A DNA stretch of 64,000 nt from Escherichia phage T2. Location of the stretch: the sequence record NC_054931.1; one strand, written 5' to 3'. The notes beneath the pieces were generated by a model, which worked only from the letters and a program-made list of their open reading frames with translations, was not told the DNA's origin and did not search any database. Position numbers and translations under genes: made by a program. Numbering within the stretch: position 1 is the first letter of the stretch; each line of letters starts with the position of its first letter. This document shows, piece after piece, positions 6,584 to 37,766 of the stretch.

Positions 6584-7867
6584 ATGGCTAAAATCAACGA
6601 ACTTCTGCGCGAATCAACCACAACGAATAGCAACTCAATCGGTCGCCCAAATCTCGTTGCTTTGACTCGCGCTACCACTAAATTAATATATTCTGACATT
6701 GTAGCAACGCAAAGAACTAATCAACCTGTTGCTGCTTTTTATGGTATCAAATACCTTAACCCAGACAACGAATTTACATTTAAAACTGGTGCTACTTATG
6801 CTGGCGAAGCTGGATATGTAGACCGAGAACAAATCACAGAATTAACAGAAGAGTCTAAATTAACTCTCAATAAAGGCGATTTATTCAAATATAATAATAT
6901 CGTTTATAAAGTATTAGAAGATACACCATTTGCTGATATTGAAGAAAGCGACTTAGAGCTGGCTCTTCAGATTGCAATTGTTCTTTTAAAGGTTCGTCTA
7001 TTTTCTGACGCAGCGTCAACAAGCAAATTTGAAAGCTCTGATAGTGAAATTGCGGATGCTAGATTCCAGATTAATAAATGGCAAACCGCGGTTAAATCTC
7101 GTAAACTTAAAACTGGCATCACAGTTGAATTAGCGCAAGATTTAGAAGCAAATGGATTCGATGCTCCTAATTTCTTGGAAGATTTGCTTGCAACTGAAAT
7201 GGCAGATGAAATCAATAAAGATATTCTGCAATCTTTGATTACAGTGTCAAAACGCTATAAAGTTACAGGAATTACTGATAGTGGATTCATCGATTTGAGT
7301 TATGCGTCTGCACCTGAAGCTGGTCGTTCATTATACCGAATGGTATGTGAAATTGTTTCGCATATCCAAAAAGAATCAACTTATACAGCAACGTTCTGTG
7401 TTGCTTCTGCTCGTGCCGCTGCGATTCTTGCTGCATCAGGTTGGTTAAAACATAAACCAGAAGATGACAAATATCTTTCACAAAATGCCTACGGGTTATT
7501 AGCTAATGGTTTACCGCTTTATTGCGATACTAACAGCCCATTAGATTATGTAATCGTTGGTGTAGTAGAAAATATCGGTGAAAAAGAAATTGTTGGATCA
7601 ATTTTCTATGCTCCGTATACAGAAGGTCTCGACTTAGATGACCCTGAACATGTAGGCGCATTTAAAGTTGTTGTTGATCCAGAAAGCTTACAACCGTCTA
7701 TCAGTTTATTAGTTAGATATGCTTTATCAGCAAATCCTTATACCGTAGCAAAAGATGAAAAAGAAGCAAGAGTAATTGATGGTGGAGACATGGATAAAAT
7801 GGCGGGTCGTTCAGATTTGTCTGTTTTATTAGGTGTTAAATTACCAAAAATTATTATTGATGAATAA
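6584..7867 (+). CDS. 24: capsid vertex protein
   Basis: 427 aa ORF, gp23 paralog in the expected position; late promoter motif upstream. Confidence 0.95.
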   Translation: MAKINELLRESTTTNSNSIGRPNLVALTRATTKLIYSDIVATQRTNQPVAAFYGIKYLNPDNEFTFKTGATYAGEAGYVDREQITELTEESKLTLNKGDLFKYNNIVYKVLEDTPFADIEESDLELALQIAIVLLKVRLFSDAASTSKFESSDSEIADARFQINKWQTAVKSRKLKTGITVELAQDLEANGFDAPNFLEDLLATEMADEINKDILQSLITVSKRYKVTGITDSGFIDLSYASAPEAGRSLYRMVCEIVSHIQKESTYTATFCVASARAAAILAASGWLKHKPEDDKYLSQNAYGLLANGLPLYCDTNSPLDYVIVGVVENIGEKEIVGSIFYAPYTEGLDLDDPEHVGAFKVVVDPESLQPSISLLVRYALSANPYTVAKDEKEARVIDGGDMDKMAGRSDLSVLLGVKLPKIIIDE

Positions 7868-7897
7868 AACAAAGGGACCGAAAGGTCCCTTTTTATT
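7868..7897. terminator. bidirectional hairpin terminator between 24 and rnlB
   Basis: AAAGGGACC-GAAA-GGTCCCTTTTT, flanked by A-run and T-run. Confidence 0.6.
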
Positions 7898-8897
7898 TAG
7901 CTCACCAACTCAATCCAAGCTGGACGAAGTACATCTTACCATTTTAACTAATTCCTTTTTAATCAAAGAAGGATTATCTGCTTGAGTTAGAGTAATACCT
8001 TCACGAGAAGTTTCTTCCAAAATATCTTGAACAGTTAGCCCCATCACCTTTCCAAAATCCTTTGGACCAATTTCGCCAATTTTAGAAATAACGTTATTTA
8101 CACGGTTCAGTGTAACGTAACAAGCTAAAATTCCCACCAATTTGTTATCAGCTTCTGATAGTTCAACTTTAGCTTTAATAGGCTTATCAGACTTTTTCTT
8201 TTCACTAAATTTGGAATTCTTGCATTTAATTGCTACACGATTTCCATTATGAAGCCAAGAAGGATAACAAGGTTTCAATACATATCCTTCAGCAGTAAAT
8301 ACTTCGCCTTTTGCTTCGGCATTCCAAACGCATTTATTTGCATCAACTAATCCAGCATGGTCTACTGTAAAATTATAATCTTGGACGACAGAATCTAAAT
8401 CATTTGGCAATTTAATAAGCTCTTCAAATTTACCGCGACCTAAAAGTGGAGCAATTTTAAATTTAAATGTATTACAGAATGATTCCATCATATAATCATC
8501 AACATAAGTCACATCACCACTTTCTGTAGTGACAATAATGTCAAATACATAAAAATCTTTATCGCCATAATCAACATTCTTCTGAATGCCAGGTCCAGCG
8601 AATTCGCCAAAGACTTGATAAGATACAACCGCTGAGGTTTCCATAATATCTTGTACTGCTTTAATGGAATCAGCGTAATTCTTTAGAATAATTTCATACC
8701 CAAAGAAATCTTCAGCAGGAAGAATCGGTCCAGTACGTTTAGCACAAGTTACTTTATCACGCTCAATAATCAATGAGAAATTTGTGCCGTGAATCTTTTC
8801 ACGAGCTACCCATTCGCCGCCAGTCAATCCCAAGCTGTAAAGTTTTTCAATAAATTTAGAGTTGTAATGATTTTCAAGACTGCTACTTTTTAAACAT
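7897..8897 (-). pseudogene. rnlB: RNA ligase 2, interrupted by two apparent frameshifts
   Basis: ORF 7910..8833 carries the ligase core (EKIHGTN lysine motif) but opens at TTG; the ATG with a good RBS at about 8897 reads MFKK then stops; the C-terminal [12 protein letters not shown] is in another frame ending about 7897. Confidence 0.7.
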
Positions 8898-8906
8898 AAT
8901 TAATCC

Positions 8907-9182
8907 TCAAAATGTAATTTCTAACCAATCACCATCACGCTGATCACTATTGACTTTAAAATTAAATCCTTCTTTTCTCAGCCAATCACCAATTTCTTCA
9001 GTAATCAATTTATCGCGAGCAGTATAATAACTAAAATATGTTTTACCTTGTTCAGCTGCTTTATTAGCAAGTTCCGAAAAATCTTTAATAAAACACTCTA
9101 GCTTAAACTGTTTACTTTTTAATGCTTTTTCGCGTAATTGATTAGCAAAAGATTCATTTTCATAAAGTTCATACTGTTCCAT
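8907..9182 (-). CDS. hypothetical protein (T4 24.2/24.3 region)
   Basis: 91 aa ORF with AAGGTGA RBS; overlaps the upstream ORF by 14 nt. Confidence 0.6.
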   Translation of the reverse strand: MEQYELYENESFANQLREKALKSKQFKLECFIKDFSELANKAAEQGKTYFSYYTARDKLITEEIGDWLRKEGFNFKVNSDQRDGDWLEITF

Positions 9183-9473: not shown

Positions 9474-10590
9474 TTATGGATAGGTATAGATGATACCAGT
9501 TTCTAAAGCAGTTTTATGAATGATGTATCCATTACGCGATTCTTGGACATCAACTTCTGGATAGTCTTTCATCATCTTCTGAAGAGTGTAACGATGCAGG
9601 TAGTATTTACTCTGGATCTTCAGTTTTCCAATCTTTACCTTCTTCAGTCATTTTTTGGATTTCATCCATAACCCACCAACCGCACCAGATGTAAGCTGAA
9701 GTACGATGTGGAAGAGGATGAACATAAGGTAATTCACCTTCTGGTTCTGGAGCAACTTTATCAGTTACCTGAACTTGACCTGTTGTTTTAACTGTTTTGC
9801 TATCATAATCAGTAGCAGTAACGACGGCAGTCACTTCAATAGTTTGACTTCCAACAGATGAAGTATCAACGGTATATACATTAGTTGACCCTTCTACAGG
9901 AGAAGAATCTTTCTTCCATGAATAAGTAATTTGCGCTTCTTCTGGAGCATCAGTAACATTAGCAGTAAATGTAGCCGAAGCATCTTGTTGAACGTTAATA
10001 GAAGGAGGAGTCAATGTAACCTGTGGATTCATTGTCTTCTTATTAACCGTTAATGACACTTCATTAGAAGTAACGCTTAGTGCATCATAATCTGTCGCGG
10101 TTACTTGAGCTACACACTTGATTTTTTAACTCCACTTGTAGTTGGAGTATAGCTAAATGTAGAGTTAGTTTCTCCACCAACTTGTGAATCATCTACATAC
10201 CACTGATACGTAGCAGATGCTCCATCAGGTTGAGAAGCTAAGGCAGCAGTAAATTGAACTGGGGTTCCGATTACTCCAGCGTCAGGGCTATTAGGAGTTA
10301 CAGCTAAGGTGGTCGTTTGTGTCTTATTTTGAACTGTGATAGTTGTAGTAGCTTCTGCTGTTTCAGCTTCAGCTTCTGGAATTGTATTTGTTGCAACTAC
10401 TTTAATAGTCTTTTGACCGGCAGGTATAACTAAAAGTTGCTTCAGCTCCATCTTGTGGAACATTATCTACGCTCCAAGCATAGGTAATAGTTCCACCTTC
10501 AGTTTGACCACTGGGTGCAGCAGTAAACTGCTTGGTTTCATCAATAACCCCTGTCGGTGTTTTAGGAGTTATATCAACTGTAAAAGTCAT
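9474..10590 (-). pseudogene. hoc: outer capsid protein Hoc, interrupted by at least three frameshifts
   Basis: Three track ORFs (10402..10590, 10110..10463, 9607..10059) in different frames together encode the Ig-like Hoc domains; the capsid-binding C-terminus (YYLHRYTLQKMMKDYPEVDVQESRNGYIIHKTALETGIIYTYP) is in a further frame below 9607. Confidence 0.75.
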
Positions 10591-11330: not shown

Positions 11331-12842
11331 ATGACTGACATTAAAGTACATTTTTATGATTTTAGTCACGTGAGAATTGATTGTGAAGAAAGTACATTTC
11401 ATGAACTCCGTGATTTCTTTAGCTTTGAAGCTGATGGGTATCGTTTTAATCCGAAATACAAATATGGCCACTGGGATGGACGAATCCGTCTTTTAGATTA
11501 TAATCGTCTTCTTCCATTCGGCTTAGTCGGGCAAATTAAAAAGTTCTGTGATAATTTTGGCTATAAAGCCTGGATTGACCCACAAATTAACGAAAAAGAA
11601 GAATTATCAAGAAAAGATTTTGATGAATGGCTTTCTAAATTAGAAATCTATTCAGGAAATAAAAGAATCGAACCACACTGGTATCAAAAAGATGCAGTGT
11701 TCGAAGGATTAGTTAATCGTCGTAGAATTCTTAATCTTCCAACATCTGCAGGTAAATCTTTAATTCAAGCTTTGCTTGCGCGATATTATTTGGAAAATTA
11801 TGAAGGTAAAATTCTTATCATTGTTCCAACAACTGCTTTAACAACTCAGATGGCTGATGACTTTGTTGACTATCGTTTATTCAGTCATGCAATGATAAAG
11901 AAAATTGGTGGCGGAGCATCAAAAGATGATAAATATAAAAATGATGCACCAGTCGTTGTTGGTACATGGCAAACTGTAGTTAAACAACCGAAAGAATGGT
12001 TCTCACAGTTTGGAATGATGATGAATGATGAATGCCATCTTGCTACAGGAAAAAGTATTTCATCTATCATATCAGGTTTAAATAACTGCATGTTCAAATT
12101 CGGTTTGTCTGGTTCATTACGTGATGGCAAAGCTAATATCATGCAGTATGTTGGAATGTTTGGTGAAATATTTAAGCCAGTAACGACTTCTAAATTAATG
12201 GAAGATGGACAAGTAACTGAGCTAAAAATTAATAGTATTTTTCTTCGCTATCCAGATGAGTTCACTACTAAATTAAAGGGAAAAACTTACCAAGAAGAAA
12301 TAAAAATTATTACTGGGCTCAGTAAAAGAAATAAATGGATCGCTAAATTAGCTATTAAGCTTGCGCAAAAAGATGAAAACGCTTTTGTCATGTTTAAACA
12401 TGTATCGCATGGTAAAGCTATTTTCGATTTAATTAAAAATGAATACGATAAAGTTTATTACGTATCAGGGGAAGTTGATACCGAAACCCGCAATATAATG
12501 AAAACCTTAGCTGAAAATGGTAAAGGAATAATTATAGTAGCTAGTTATGGTGTATTTTCTACTGGTATTTCAGTTAAAAATCTGCATCACGTTGTTTTAG
12601 CGCACGGTGTTAAATCAAAAATCATTGTATTACAAACAATCGGTCGTGTATTACGTAAGCATGGTTCTAAGACAATAGCAACCGTCTGGGACCTCATAGA
12701 TGATTGTGGTGTTAAGCCAAAATCTGCTAATACGAAAAAGAAATATGTTCATTTGAACTATCTTTTAAAACACGGCATTGATCGTATTCAGCGCTACGCA
12801 GATGAAAAATTTAATTACGTAATGAAAACAGTTAATTTATAA
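11331..12842 (+). CDS. uvsW: UvsW SF2 DNA helicase
   Basis: 503 aa ORF; Walker A LPTSAGKS and DECH box; size as T4 UvsW. Confidence 0.95.
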   Translation: MTDIKVHFYDFSHVRIDCEESTFHELRDFFSFEADGYRFNPKYKYGHWDGRIRLLDYNRLLPFGLVGQIKKFCDNFGYKAWIDPQINEKEELSRKDFDEWLSKLEIYSGNKRIEPHWYQKDAVFEGLVNRRRILNLPTSAGKSLIQALLARYYLENYEGKILIIVPTTALTTQMADDFVDYRLFSHAMIKKIGGGASKDDKYKNDAPVVVGTWQTVVKQPKEWFSQFGMMMNDECHLATGKSISSIISGLNNCMFKFGLSGSLRDGKANIMQYVGMFGEIFKPVTTSKLMEDGQVTELKINSIFLRYPDEFTTKLKGKTYQEEIKIITGLSKRNKWIAKLAIKLAQKDENAFVMFKHVSHGKAIFDLIKNEYDKVYYVSGEVDTETRNIMKTLAENGKGIIIVASYGVFSTGISVKNLHHVVLAHGVKSKIIVLQTIGRVLRKHGSKTIATVWDLIDDCGVKPKSANTKKKYVHLNYLLKHGIDRIQRYADEKFNYVMKTVNL

Positions 12843-12862
12843 GGGCTTCGGCCCTTTGGAGA
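12843..12862 (+). terminator. hairpin after uvsW
   Basis: GGGCTTCGGCCC hairpin. Confidence 0.4.
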
Positions 12863-13098
12863 AAAAGATGTTACTAGGATTTAAACAATTTCTTTATGAA
12901 GCTTCTATTGATGAATTTATGGGTAAAATTGCCTCTTGTCAAACATTAGAAGGTTTAGAAGAACTTGAAGCTTATTATAAGAAAAGAGTCAAAGAAACTG
13001 AATTAAAAGATACTGATGACATCTCTGTAAGAGATGCTTTGGCAGGAAAAAGAGCTGAATTAGAAGATTCAGACGATGAAGTAGAAGAAAGCTTTTAA
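12856..13098 (+). CDS. uvsW.1: small acidic protein
   Basis: 80 aa ORF immediately after uvsW, followed by a hairpin terminator. Confidence 0.6.
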   Translation: MEKKMLLGFKQFLYEASIDEFMGKIASCQTLEGLEELEAYYKKRVKETELKDTDDISVRDALAGKRAELEDSDDEVEESF

Positions 13099-21745: not shown

Positions 21746-23803
21746 CTACATTTTGAACTTTTTAGACATTCCGTTGATGTTAACCAAAGAAGCTAATATT
21801 TGAGAAACTTCGTTTTCCTCTTCTTTTGATTCTTCTACAAGGAATTGATTAAATCCAGCCATTGGACGAACTTCACCAGTTTCCATTAAATGGTCTCCAT
21901 CATATACTGATTCTTCTAATTGTTCAGAAGGAGGAACGATTGTACCTTCGATTAGATACTTGTTATAAGCAGTTTCTTTCATAAAGTACGTACTTACTTT
22001 ATTAATCTTCAGTAAAATTCCACGCGGTAGAATAACTTCAGCTTCTGATGGAAATCCTGATAAATGACCTGGAACGATAACTTTGATTCGCTCAGCTCCT
22101 TTAATTACCATACCCACGCTAGTTTCAGCATCTTCATTAGCATATGTAGAATGACTACCCATATGCATCAAATCTTCTGCATCAACGGAACCTTCTCCTT
22201 CTCCAGAAAATACTGCACCGGAATCATCTAGAGCCATATAGTTTTTACCATGCTCGCCAAAGATATTTGGTTTAAGTGATGTCGATACGAAGTTCTTGAA
22301 ATAGAACATTTTGTTTTCAATGTTGTGACGCAAAGTTTTAAAGGTAACTTCTTGTCCGCGATAAAGCGTAGTTCCTGGAGGAAGAACTGAACCTTTAGCG
22401 AATGCAGAATCCAACGTCTCGATGTGCTTAATAGCACGTTCCATATATTCTTCACGGGTAGAATCTGGTTTACCCAAAAGGAACGAGTTCATTTCAACAT
22501 ATGAATCTGCACAATAATCTTCAATTACATCAGACTCAGCCTGAGTCAGTCCTTTTGGAGTTACTTCAGTGCTTGCATATTCATATGCCTGGGCAGCAGA
22601 TTCATTAATCAATTTATAAATGCCATTCATGACAAATTGAATAATAACTGTCTTTTCATCTGGCGTAGCTTTAGAACCTTTAACCAAATCATTGATAATT
22701 TTCTTAATAACATCAAAGCTATTAGAAATATTAATATCAGCAAGATCACTTAAAATTTTATCAGTTTTATAATCAAAGAATTCTTTATTCTTTAAATATT
22801 CTTGAGAACCTTGATATGTTATATCGCTCTGTAACTTGATAGATGGATCACGTAAACGTGCATGGGCTAATGCAATATGATTTCGGAAGTTTTCTAGTTC
22901 ATAATCGCTAGATTTAAAACGAGAAGCACTTCTCATACCACCGATAGCTCCTTTGCTGAAGTTTGAACCAATCTGAATAACGCCAGAGTTCATTGGTCCT
23001 TCTGCTTTATATACCGGAACTTTAGATTCAAACTCTTGATATTTCTTGGCAGCGAAGCTATCACCCTGAAGTGAAGCATCGACAGTAGAATATTGAGCTT
23101 GTGCTGCTAATCGACGACTAATTTTAGTTTTCTGAATAACCGCTTGGTCAGTACGTTTATCATTTTCTAAAGCAATAGAAGCAGCAACAGCGACAGCTTT
23201 AGGAACAGCATCACCTGTTTTAACATCTACATAAACATCACCGACCTTCGATTCAACTTTTGCGAATAACTCAGTTGAAATAGGAGGTACACCTGGAATG
23301 TCTTCTAAATTGGCATTTTTACGGTAAACCATAATATATGCATACTTTTTATCATAGTCCCAGATTTCCTTTAAAAGAACATATCGACCTGCTCCTTTAG
23401 TACGTACTAAACGGTCAGCAATAACTTGCATTTGACGAGCTGCGCCATTTGTTTTACTTTTTAGTACGCGGAATAAGCATGCGTCGATTTTATACTGTTT
23501 CATTGTTTGAAGAGCAGTATCAAAAACAGCATTAATGACGCCAATTGGATTTCCACCCAAGTTTCTAAGCTTAACCAGCGATAATTTCTCGTTGACACCT
23601 ATCATTACGATATGCATCATTTTATCGCCTGGCTTAACGTTTTTATTTGTATCACCACCAGAGGTGTATGTACAAAATCTAAATCCAGGAAGCACGCTTT
23701 CTTCGCCGGCTTGAATAGCAAAAATTTGTGGTATTTTATGCTTAGGATTTAAGTTAACAACCGGCGCCGAAGCGCCGTCAAATAATTCTGTAATAAGTTC
23801 CAT
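21746..23803 (-). CDS. Alt-family mono-ADP-ribosyltransferase paralog
   Basis: 685 aa ORF; N-terminus MELITELFD...NLNPK shared with the neighbouring gene; C-terminal R / STS / EAEVILPRG motifs typical of R-S-E ADP-ribosyltransferases. Confidence 0.8.
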   Translation of the reverse strand: MELITELFDGASAPVVNLNPKHKIPQIFAIQAGEESVLPGFRFCTYTSGGDTNKNVKPGDKMMHIVMIGVNEKLSLVKLRNLGGNPIGVINAVFDTALQTMKQYKIDACLFRVLKSKTNGAARQMQVIADRLVRTKGAGRYVLLKEIWDYDKKYAYIMVYRKNANLEDIPGVPPISTELFAKVESKVGDVYVDVKTGDAVPKAVAVAASIALENDKRTDQAVIQKTKISRRLAAQAQYSTVDASLQGDSFAAKKYQEFESKVPVYKAEGPMNSGVIQIGSNFSKGAIGGMRSASRFKSSDYELENFRNHIALAHARLRDPSIKLQSDITYQGSQEYLKNKEFFDYKTDKILSDLADINISNSFDVIKKIINDLVKGSKATPDEKTVIIQFVMNGIYKLINESAAQAYEYASTEVTPKGLTQAESDVIEDYCADSYVEMNSFLLGKPDSTREEYMERAIKHIETLDSAFAKGSVLPPGTTLYRGQEVTFKTLRHNIENKMFYFKNFVSTSLKPNIFGEHGKNYMALDDSGAVFSGEGEGSVDAEDLMHMGSHSTYANEDAETSVGMVIKGAERIKVIVPGHLSGFPSEAEVILPRGILLKINKVSTYFMKETAYNKYLIEGTIVPPSEQLEESVYDGDHLMETGEVRPMAGFNQFLVEESKEEENEVSQILASLVNINGMSKKFKM

Positions 23804-23806
23804 GAT

Positions 23807-25903
23807 TTATCCTTGAACGAACTTGTAAGGCATGTTTGTAATATCTATGCAAGACGCAATAATTCCGAGAGATGATTCTACTTTCTGTTTAACATTTGAT
23901 GAAACAAATGATGCAAAGTCAACTCTGTCTTCTATTTCAATATCACCTGTCATTGCAACTACTTCGCCGGTTTCCATTAAACGGTCTCCGTCATAGATTA
24001 CCGATTCGGTGAGTTCTTCTGTGGTCATAACTTCAGCTTGAATGAGTTTTGTATTATTAGACGTGGTTCCGTCATTATTAGAAGCATCAGTTATTTTATT
24101 AACTTTGACCATCAATCCGCGCGGTAGAATAACTTCAGCTTCTGTTGCTATTCCGAGACTTCCTGGATATACAACATTAACTTTATGAGCTCCATCAATT
24201 GCCCATCCTATTTGAACTTTAACGTATTCAGGATTTTCTTTATACGCTCTTATTTCGTTTGGATTAATAGTTATTCCTTCTTCATTTTTATCAACTGTTA
24301 ATTCATTGCGAGCTTCTGGTTCTAAAAGACCAATACCAGCATGTGTAATTCCAAAACGTCCAAAAATGATAGGAGTTAAAGAAGTAGATACAAAATTTCT
24401 GAAATAGAACACTTTATTTTTAACTAGCGCTTCGTATATAGGAGCAGTCATACTTTGAGCACGATAAACTGTAATGCCTTCCGGTATGCGGTCACCATTT
24501 TCAAAAGCTGAATCTAAATTATTTATAGCAGATTCAATTTCTTTTTCACTCATTACATCATATCGTTCTGGATTGTAACGACCTAAAAGAAGATTATTAA
24601 TGTCTGTATATCCTGAACCACAATACTCTCTAATACCGCGCTTTTGTGATGGTGTATATTTAGAACCATCACAAGCAATAGTAATATCAATCATTGGACC
24701 AGCACCAATTCCAGAAAAACTATAAATCATTCGTTTGAGGAATTTAGTTTTTGCTGCATTCCAGGCATTTTTAGTTATTTCTCCCCAGACTTCATCTGGC
24801 TGCCCTTTACGAGTTTTATTATGTTTATCAAGCCAATTATCTTTATATTCTTCAAAGAATTGATTGACAGCTGCCGCGTATTTCTCTAAACATTTTATTG
24901 AAGTAGTTGGTTCATTTTTAATCGCGTTAAAAATTACATCTTTAATTTTTTCAGAAACTTCATCAACCTCACTTTTTGAAAAGAATTTATAGTCATAGTG
25001 AAGTTCATTCGCAGTTCCTTCGGCAATAATTTTTGCTGCCTTTGTTTTAGAAGCTAATGAATTAATTCCAATTTTCATTTCTTCTGCTTCGGGAATTAAA
25101 GGAGCGGTAGCAGGCTTATTGAAATTAGCTGCGGTAGATTCATACTTCTGGAATAATTCACTTTCAAATCTAGAAGATTCCAATGATTGACTTTGCGCAA
25201 TTGCTCTACGGGAAATTTTAACTTTAACGATTACAGCTTGGTCAGTACGTTTATCATTTTCTTGTGCAATAGATGCTGCAATTGCCTCGTTTTTAGTTAC
25301 TTGAGCTCCAGTATCTTTATTGATATAAACATCACCGACCTTCGATTCAACTTTAGTAAAGAGCTCGGTACTAATTTCCGGAACTCCTGGAATGTCTTCT
25401 AGTGATACATTTTTGCGATGTATAAGAATATATGCATACTTTTTATCATAATCCCAGAGTTCCTTAAGAAGGACGTATCTGCCACCTGAACGACTACGGA
25501 TAAGTCTATCAGCAATAACTTGAATTTGTCGAGCTTGACCAGCAGTTTTAGACTTAAGAATACGAAGCATACAAGCATCAATTTTATACTGACGCATTGT
25601 TTGCATTGCAACAGTAAAAACTGAATTGATATAATTAATTGGGCTTGGACCAAGACCTTTTAATTTAGCAATTGAACCTTTAGCAGTTAATGTAAAAGGA
25701 ACAATATGCATCATTTTATCGCCCATTTTTAAATCGCGATTAGTATCACCTCCAGATGTATAGGTACATAAACGAAAGCCTGGTTGTTCAATTGCATCAT
25801 CAACATGAACTGAAAAAATTTGTGGTATTTTCTTCTTTGGATTTAAGTTTGTAATCGGAAGAGTAGTATCTTCGTCAAATAATTCTGTAATGAGTTCCAT
25901 CAT
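23807..25903 (-). CDS. alt: Alt mono-ADP-ribosyltransferase (packaged internal head protein in T4)
   Basis: 698 aa ORF next to ligase gene 30; ART motifs YRAQ, FVSTSL, TEAEVILPRG; N-terminal MELITE consistent with prohead-protease processing. Confidence 0.8.
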   Translation of the reverse strand: MMELITELFDEDTTLPITNLNPKKKIPQIFSVHVDDAIEQPGFRLCTYTSGGDTNRDLKMGDKMMHIVPFTLTAKGSIAKLKGLGPSPINYINSVFTVAMQTMRQYKIDACMLRILKSKTAGQARQIQVIADRLIRSRSGGRYVLLKELWDYDKKYAYILIHRKNVSLEDIPGVPEISTELFTKVESKVGDVYINKDTGAQVTKNEAIAASIAQENDKRTDQAVIVKVKISRRAIAQSQSLESSRFESELFQKYESTAANFNKPATAPLIPEAEEMKIGINSLASKTKAAKIIAEGTANELHYDYKFFSKSEVDEVSEKIKDVIFNAIKNEPTTSIKCLEKYAAAVNQFFEEYKDNWLDKHNKTRKGQPDEVWGEITKNAWNAAKTKFLKRMIYSFSGIGAGPMIDITIACDGSKYTPSQKRGIREYCGSGYTDINNLLLGRYNPERYDVMSEKEIESAINNLDSAFENGDRIPEGITVYRAQSMTAPIYEALVKNKVFYFRNFVSTSLTPIIFGRFGITHAGIGLLEPEARNELTVDKNEEGITINPNEIRAYKENPEYVKVQIGWAIDGAHKVNVVYPGSLGIATEAEVILPRGLMVKVNKITDASNNDGTTSNNTKLIQAEVMTTEELTESVIYDGDRLMETGEVVAMTGDIEIEDRVDFASFVSSNVKQKVESSLGIIASCIDITNMPYKFVQG

Positions 25904-33526: not shown

Positions 33527-34677
<1,151 letters not shown>

Positions 34678-36178: not shown

Positions 36179-37766
<1,588 letters not shown>

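Follow-up and report, generated by a model that had tools for sequence, protein, structure and literature searches.

RNA ligase 2 (Rnl2), the product of rnlB, is among the biochemically best-characterised RNA ligases and is routinely used as a laboratory reagent, yet what it does during phage infection is still unknown (PMC3884662). The rnlB locus of Escherichia phage T2 raises the question of whether a gene that is annotated as RNA ligase 2 in T2 records still yields the enzyme. The analysed window comprises 64,000 nucleotides of the T2 record NC_054931.1, and all positions given below refer to it. For this window, the initial annotation, made from the sequence alone, had described rnlB as carrying two 2-nt frameshifts. 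Our results suggest that T2 rnlB (gp24.1) is probably a lineage-specific frameshift pseudogene and that functional Rnl2 is most likely missing from this phage.

Reading frames and deletions of the T2 rnlB locus

The rnlB locus occupies positions 7897-8897 on the minus strand, between gene 24 and gene 24.2 (8907-9182, minus). Gene 24, the capsid-vertex gene (6584-7867, plus), is convergent with rnlB, and a bidirectional terminator hairpin (7871-7892) lies between the two. The initial annotation had reported an ATG with a good ribosome-binding site near 8897 that reads MFKK and then meets a stop. In agreement with this, the ancestral Shine-Dalgarno element GAGG was located at 8908-8905 (minus), 7 nt 5' of the ATG and identical to that of T4, AugustSocin and RB3. 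Translation from the ATG (8897-8895) gave Met-Phe-Lys-Lys, followed by a premature TAG at 8885-8883, so that the ancestral start and codons 1-4 together with the stop span 8897-8883 on the minus strand.

The ligase frame itself is open from 8899, and according to the ORF list the earliest ATG, GTG or TTG in it is the TTG at 8833. Ancestral codons 6-22 (8899-8834, minus) are therefore open in this frame with no start codon before that TTG, which corresponds to T4 Leu23 in the alignment to 1S68. This placement bore out the earlier view that the frame of the KIHGTN core starts no earlier than a TTG at T4 residue 23. The ORF that begins there (7910-8833, minus) ends with a TGA at 7912-7910 and encodes 307 amino acids, namely ancestral residues 23-321 followed by eight out-of-frame residues, RCTSSSLD. 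It is the ORF annotated as RNA ligase 2 in T2 records, and it matched the solved T4 Rnl2 chains with E = 8e-202, with residues 1-227 of the ORF corresponding to residues 23-249 of 1S68. The last 12 ancestral codons and their TAA (7935-7897, minus) lie untranslated in a third frame, as translation of this segment confirmed. T2 rnlB is split over three frames, with no single uninterrupted frame that has both a start codon and a ribosome-binding site.

The locus is 1001 nt long in T2, compared with 1005 nt in the intact rnlB of T4, T6, RB3 and AugustSocin, which is the shortfall of 4 nt that had been suspected at the outset. Comparison with T4 also showed that the termini of T4 Rnl2 assumed in the initial annotation were correct. 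Nucleotide alignment to T4 and the three other intact orthologues revealed exactly two gaps in T2 rnlB, each of 2 nt, in accordance with the two frameshifts proposed. Deletion 1 corresponds to TA missing from AAG[TA]TAGC in codon 5, the Tyr codon with the sequence TATA, with its junction at about 8884/8885 (minus; the placement is ambiguous within GTAG). Deletion 2 corresponds to AC or CA missing from GGT[AC]AAG at codons 321/322, with its junction at about 7937/7938 (minus) in the alignment to the intact orthologues. Both deletions are dinucleotides outside homopolymers.

We propose that rnlB was inactivated in the T2 lineage through two independent 2-bp deletions. The first takes TA out of the TATA at codon 5 and thereby creates the TAG, so that ribosomes starting at the ancestral ATG would make just Met-Phe-Lys-Lys and stop. 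The second puts the last 13 codons out of frame, with RCTSSSLD in their place. The central 299 codons are still open, with all catalytic motifs and without a proper start, and any product would be devoid of the conserved N-terminal 22 residues and of the conserved end of the C-terminal domain.

What the ligase keeps and lacks, and how it could be translated

The central part of the gene is well preserved. T2 and T4 rnlB share 97.5% nucleotide identity, and residues 23-321 differ at three positions (C112G, M149I and R217H). Four substitutions in the central ORF are unique to T2, two of them synonymous and the other two (M149I and R217H) at variable columns; a ratio of two synonymous to two non-synonymous changes is too small a sample for judging relaxed selection. 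Conservation was assessed in an alignment of 11 sequences, consisting of the T2 ORF and ten intact homologues with 36-100% identity to T4. Motif I, KIHGTN with the adenylylation lysine (T4 Lys35), is intact at 8780-8797 (minus), and the invariant columns E34, K35, I36, H37, G38 and N40 are all present in the T2 ORF. The same applies to R55, E99, F119/D120, E204, K209 and K225/K227, which are invariant in this alignment. Furthermore, both Pfam domains were recognised, PF09414 with 82.7 bits (profile positions 2-170 of 171) and PF18043 with 83.3 bits (2-80 of 82).

The lost parts are conserved as well. Of the 1373 phage records in which a tblastn search with T4 Rnl2 detected a homologue, 1369 gave a single uninterrupted alignment covering 80% or more of the protein. 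Even at 33-57% identity, the alignment begins at residue 1-2 and reaches about residue 329-334. In the 11-sequence alignment, M1, F2, K4, Y5, S7, L8 and N10 near the N-terminus and R326 and W329 near the C-terminus are conserved at 90% or more, and all of these positions fall in parts that T2 no longer encodes in frame. Among them, Tyr5 was reportedly scored as essential in the alanine scans of the Shuman laboratory. Residues 322-329, including R326 and W329, are swapped for out-of-frame sequence in the T2 ORF. The NCBIfam equivalog profile TIGR02307 covers positions 21-314 of 326 in the T2 ORF and 1-326 in T4, and its score falls from 467 bits in T4 to 415 bits in T2; a full-length match including the conserved N-terminal segment was not obtained with the T2 ORF. 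In T4 Rnl2, residues 1-234 form the nucleotidyltransferase domain and residues 244-329 the C-terminal domain (PMC4599027), the latter being required for nick recognition and step 2 (PMC3884662, PMC1807946).

Since the central ORF is otherwise pristine and both Pfam domains score above threshold, a truncated and partly active protein is conceivable. Such a protein of 307 amino acids would be made from TTG 8833, or by reinitiation after the MFKK mini-ORF, and would keep some ligase or adenylyltransferase function. It would retain every nucleotidyltransferase motif, and the ORF contains no internal stops and only the two missense changes at variable positions. Additionally, the isolated adenylyltransferase domain of T4 Rnl2 self-adenylylates and seals pre-adenylylated nicks, and so carries out steps 1 and 3 alone (PMC3884662). 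We nevertheless regard this outcome as unlikely. With just four lineage-specific substitutions, chance would be expected to leave the ORF open even in the absence of selection, and seven near-invariant positions lie in the missing N-terminal 22 residues and two in the missing C-terminal tail. The start signals also argue against it. No GGAG-like or Shine-Dalgarno element is present in AAAAACTTTACAGC, the stretch preceding TTG 8833, while the strong initiation signal of the locus feeds the four-codon ORF in another frame. The next in-frame ATG after TTG 8833 is Met86, past the catalytic lysine. A scan for promoter-like sequences was uninformative, with matches no more numerous than in shuffles.

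Public annotation is divided on this ORF. Exactly the 924-nt CDS from the TTG is annotated in three T2 records, as 'RNA ligase (2)' or 'hypothetical protein', which could be taken in favour of a truncated enzyme, but the annotators of phage SV76 chose other, shorter CDSs (120 nt and 603 nt) on the identical sequence. The CDS call thus depends on the pipeline, and the 307-aa 'RNA ligase 2' would be a product of gene calling, which makes the public annotation appear misleading. With the start and the conserved ends lost, T2 most likely makes no functional Rnl2. Expression and activity of the gene are most likely both absent, and since the product annotated from the TTG would most likely not function as an enzyme, rnlB would best be called a pseudogene.

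A second route to a product would be recoding at the deletion sites, which we consider very improbable. Ribosomes from ATG 8897 would shift by -2 (AAG back to AAA) or by +1 at the 'shifty stop' A-AAA-AAG-UAG and make MFKK(S)SSLENHY..., with a near-full-length N-terminus that lacks only Tyr5. The C-terminus would then be either altered or restored through a second +1 shift at GUA-AGA. The ligase frame is indeed open across site 1, and ancestral residues 6-22 are still encoded. Site 1 reads AUG-UUU-AAA-AAG-UAG, an A-rich Lys-Lys run directly before a stop, a context that Weiss and colleagues reportedly found in 1987 to promote low-level slippage. Site 2 contains AGA, a rare codon in E. coli, although T-even phages have their own AGA-reading tRNA, which counts against recoding there.

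The remaining evidence weighs against such a shift. Only T2 shows the frameshifted arrangement, which is missing in more than 440 relatives and is therefore not conserved. The efficient slip at A-AAG is -1, which leads into a dead-end frame, and re-pairing at site 1 (AAG to AAA) is possible for a -2 shift only. At site 2 (GUA-AGA-UGU) there is no re-pairing for the Val-tRNA. Folding of the 103 nt that surround and follow site 1 gave -9.1 kcal/mol, compared with a shuffle mean of -14.3 (z = +1.84), so that this RNA is less structured than the shuffles. The flanks of site 1 do not differ from those in phages whose gene is intact, and this shared downstream sequence indicates that no stimulator has evolved. 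Of the features of programmed frameshifting, re-pairing at each shift, a stimulatory RNA and conservation, none was found at rnlB. Moreover, Tyr5, conserved at 90% or more, would be lost even after recoding. That T2 makes a small amount of a Tyr5-less, Rnl2-like enzyme with an altered C-terminus, through an accidental and newborn slippage site, would likewise be very improbable.

Distribution of the lesions and state of the neighbouring genes

Positions 7850-8950 of the window were searched by megablast against 50,697 phage records. Identity of 100% across the 1101 nt was observed in six records, five of Escherichia phage T2 and that of SV76. The next best matches all belong to Tequatrovirus, with at most 98.0% identity and a length of 1105 nt in this interval, 4 nt more than in T2. 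Each deletion was also examined with a junction probe of 40 nt centred on it, for which an intact gene cannot give the 28-nt exact word of megablast. Each of these 40-mers matched the same six records only within the GenBank phage set, while the intact versions of the junctions occurred in 484 records (deletion 1) and 443 records (deletion 2). Junction 27-mers of either deletion had no exact match in IMG/VR or the JGI metagenomes, and junction probes revealed no single-deletion intermediates in the GenBank phage set, IMG/VR or the JGI metagenomes. An exact-protein look-up of the 307-aa ORF returned the NCBI T2 record alone and no independent run-level assemblies. In literature searches, no paper mentioning the T2 rnlB lesions was found, and matches to 'rnlB' concerned mostly an unrelated E. 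coli antitoxin.

The T2 records differ in the host and country given for them (Japan and USA, with SV76 from France) and in annotation, and so apparently come from different groups. They may not all represent independent stocks, as SV76 is equal to T2 over 4.1 kb: between SV76 (OM339528.1) and T2 (MH751506.1), 0 differences were counted over 4101 nt around rnlB. SV76 is therefore effectively the same phage and would be either a T2 re-isolate or the result of a stock mix-up. The SV76 genome, obtained from sewage in France, has a length of 163,826 bp, equal to that of the T2 record AP018813.

Indels in the neighbouring genes were surveyed by tblastn of T4 proteins against the window and by a scan at base level. 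Within the well-conserved blocks between gene 24 and gene 54, uncompensated indels that break a frame relative to T4 were limited to the two in rnlB, three in hoc and one net +1 at uvsW/uvsW.1. The hoc gene (within 9474-10590, minus) is broken into four ORF fragments, at 10402-10590, 10110-10463, 9607-10059 and 9474-9575. Relative to T4, its frame is broken by deletions of 11 nt near 10426, 1 nt near 10124 and 2 nt near 9611. According to long-standing reports, T2 capsids are without Hoc. The lesions in hoc and rnlB, next to clean essential genes in the same blocks, form a pattern of real decay rather than of random error, and are consistent with the decay of two adjacent dispensable genes in T2.

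These data also bear on the idea that T2 rnlB is really intact and that the gaps are errors handed on from record to record, as may happen in reference-guided assembly. The glucosyl-hydroxymethylation of T-even DNA can interfere with some sequencing chemistries, and an older T2 record could have served for polishing some of the newer ones, but six identical records from apparently different groups in Japan, the USA and France, together with two non-homopolymer 2-nt gaps in rnlB and three frame-breaking lesions in hoc beside clean essential genes, leave such an artefact with hardly any probability. As six records agree and the deletions are dinucleotides outside homopolymers, sequencing error is very unlikely as their source. 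The rnlB lesions appear to be real; all T2/SV76 records carry them, and no other record does.

The features of a frameshift pseudogene, namely a disrupted frame, a reproducible lesion restricted to one lineage and the loss of conserved parts, were all found at T2 rnlB. Like the adjoining hoc, rnlB would be a fairly young pseudogene of a non-essential function, in this case an accessory enzyme. The classical partners of RNA repair are full length in the window: rnlA, encoding Rnl1 (36182-37303, minus), is intact with 374/374 aa and 97.9% identity to T4, and pseT, encoding the polynucleotide kinase-phosphatase Pnkp (33530-34429, minus), is intact with 301/301 aa and 91.7% identity. Of its two RNA ligase genes, T2 has only the second one broken.

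Several other differences from T4 were noted in the window. On the plus strand at 12780-12900, uvsW ends with a TAA at 12840-12842, followed by the hairpin GGGCTTCGGCCC, a GGAG and the ATG (about 12869) of a separate uvsW.1. In the T4 RefSeq record, uvsW is a single fused CDS of 587 aa, and the net difference of +1 nt lies at 12840-12844; the T6 record, too, annotates uvsW.1 separately. Two full-length alt-like ORFs are arranged in tandem on the minus strand at 21746-25903, one of 685 aa (21746-23803) and one of 698 aa (23807-25903). T4 alt shows 70% identity to the 698-aa ORF and 41% to the 685-aa ORF, and the T4 remnants alt.-1 and alt.-2 match the N-terminus of the latter at 88-96%. This resemblance indicates that T2 keeps intact a paralogue that is fragmented in T4.

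For the homing endonucleases segD, segE, mobE, I-TevI and segG of T4 (comparison with T4 100.5-150.5 kb), no tblastn match was found in the window, and the same was true of T4 30.5, 30.8, cd.4 and nrdB.1. T4 gene 30.4 is barely recognisable in the window, and cd.5 matches over its first 21 residues only. Gene 24.3 (about 9228) carries an in-frame insertion of 33 nt relative to T4, and gene 67 (about 2951-2975) a 3-nt insertion and a 12-nt deletion in its acidic repeat, both in frame.

T2 rnlB would represent an unremarkable kind of gene decay, in which a laboratory phage loses an accessory function. Should T2 prove to be a natural Rnl2-null, the enzyme is directly seen to be dispensable for growth on laboratory E. 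coli. T2 would then be a ready natural comparator for finding the function of Rnl2, for example against RNA-targeting defence systems, and its lack of the enzyme would be a caveat for reading differences in defence sensitivity among T2, T4 and T6. In GenBank records of T2, rnlB should be flagged as a pseudogene and not as 'RNA ligase 2'.

Comparison with known systems

The closest reference is T4 Rnl2 (gp24.1, rnlB; PDB 1S68, 2HVQ/2HVR/2HVS), whose gene, between gene 24 and 24.2, is the orthologue of T2 rnlB. The T4 and T2 genes have the same Shine-Dalgarno element, ATG and terminator, and T4 Rnl2 and the T2 ORF share KIHGTN, all invariant catalytic residues and matches to PF09414, PF18043 and TIGR02307. 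Unlike the T4 gene, T2 rnlB is distributed over three frames, has no usable start for its core, and has its N-terminal 22 and C-terminal 13 residues lost or replaced. Both T4 and T6 carry an intact rnlB of 1005 nt.

Regarding recoding, site 1 of T2 resembles the A-AAA-AAG (-1) site of dnaX and the CUU-UGA-C (+1) site of prfB in its slippery Lys-Lys run and stop (U-AAA-AAG-UAG). Unlike these systems, T2 would need a shift of -2 or +1 rather than the efficient -1, and in addition a second shift at a non-slippery site. Site 1 also differs in having no internal Shine-Dalgarno element at stimulatory spacing beyond the gene's own, no downstream structure and no conservation.

A frame-disrupted rnlB may have a precedent in the strabovirus Aeromonas phage Aeh1 (AY266303.2), where rnlB-A (295-504) and rnlB-B (512-1321) are annotated in different frames. 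Unlike T2, the Aeh1 homologue, which is very distant at 35% identity, has a single break near residue 70, and each of its pieces has an annotated start.

The second example of decay is found within T2 itself. Like rnlB, hoc is dispensable, lies about 0.6 kb away and contains small frame-shifting deletions, including another one of 2 nt. Unlike rnlB, it encodes a structural decoration protein and not an enzyme, and shows three lesions and four fragments. With more lesions and fragments than rnlB, the decay of hoc is probably older or faster.
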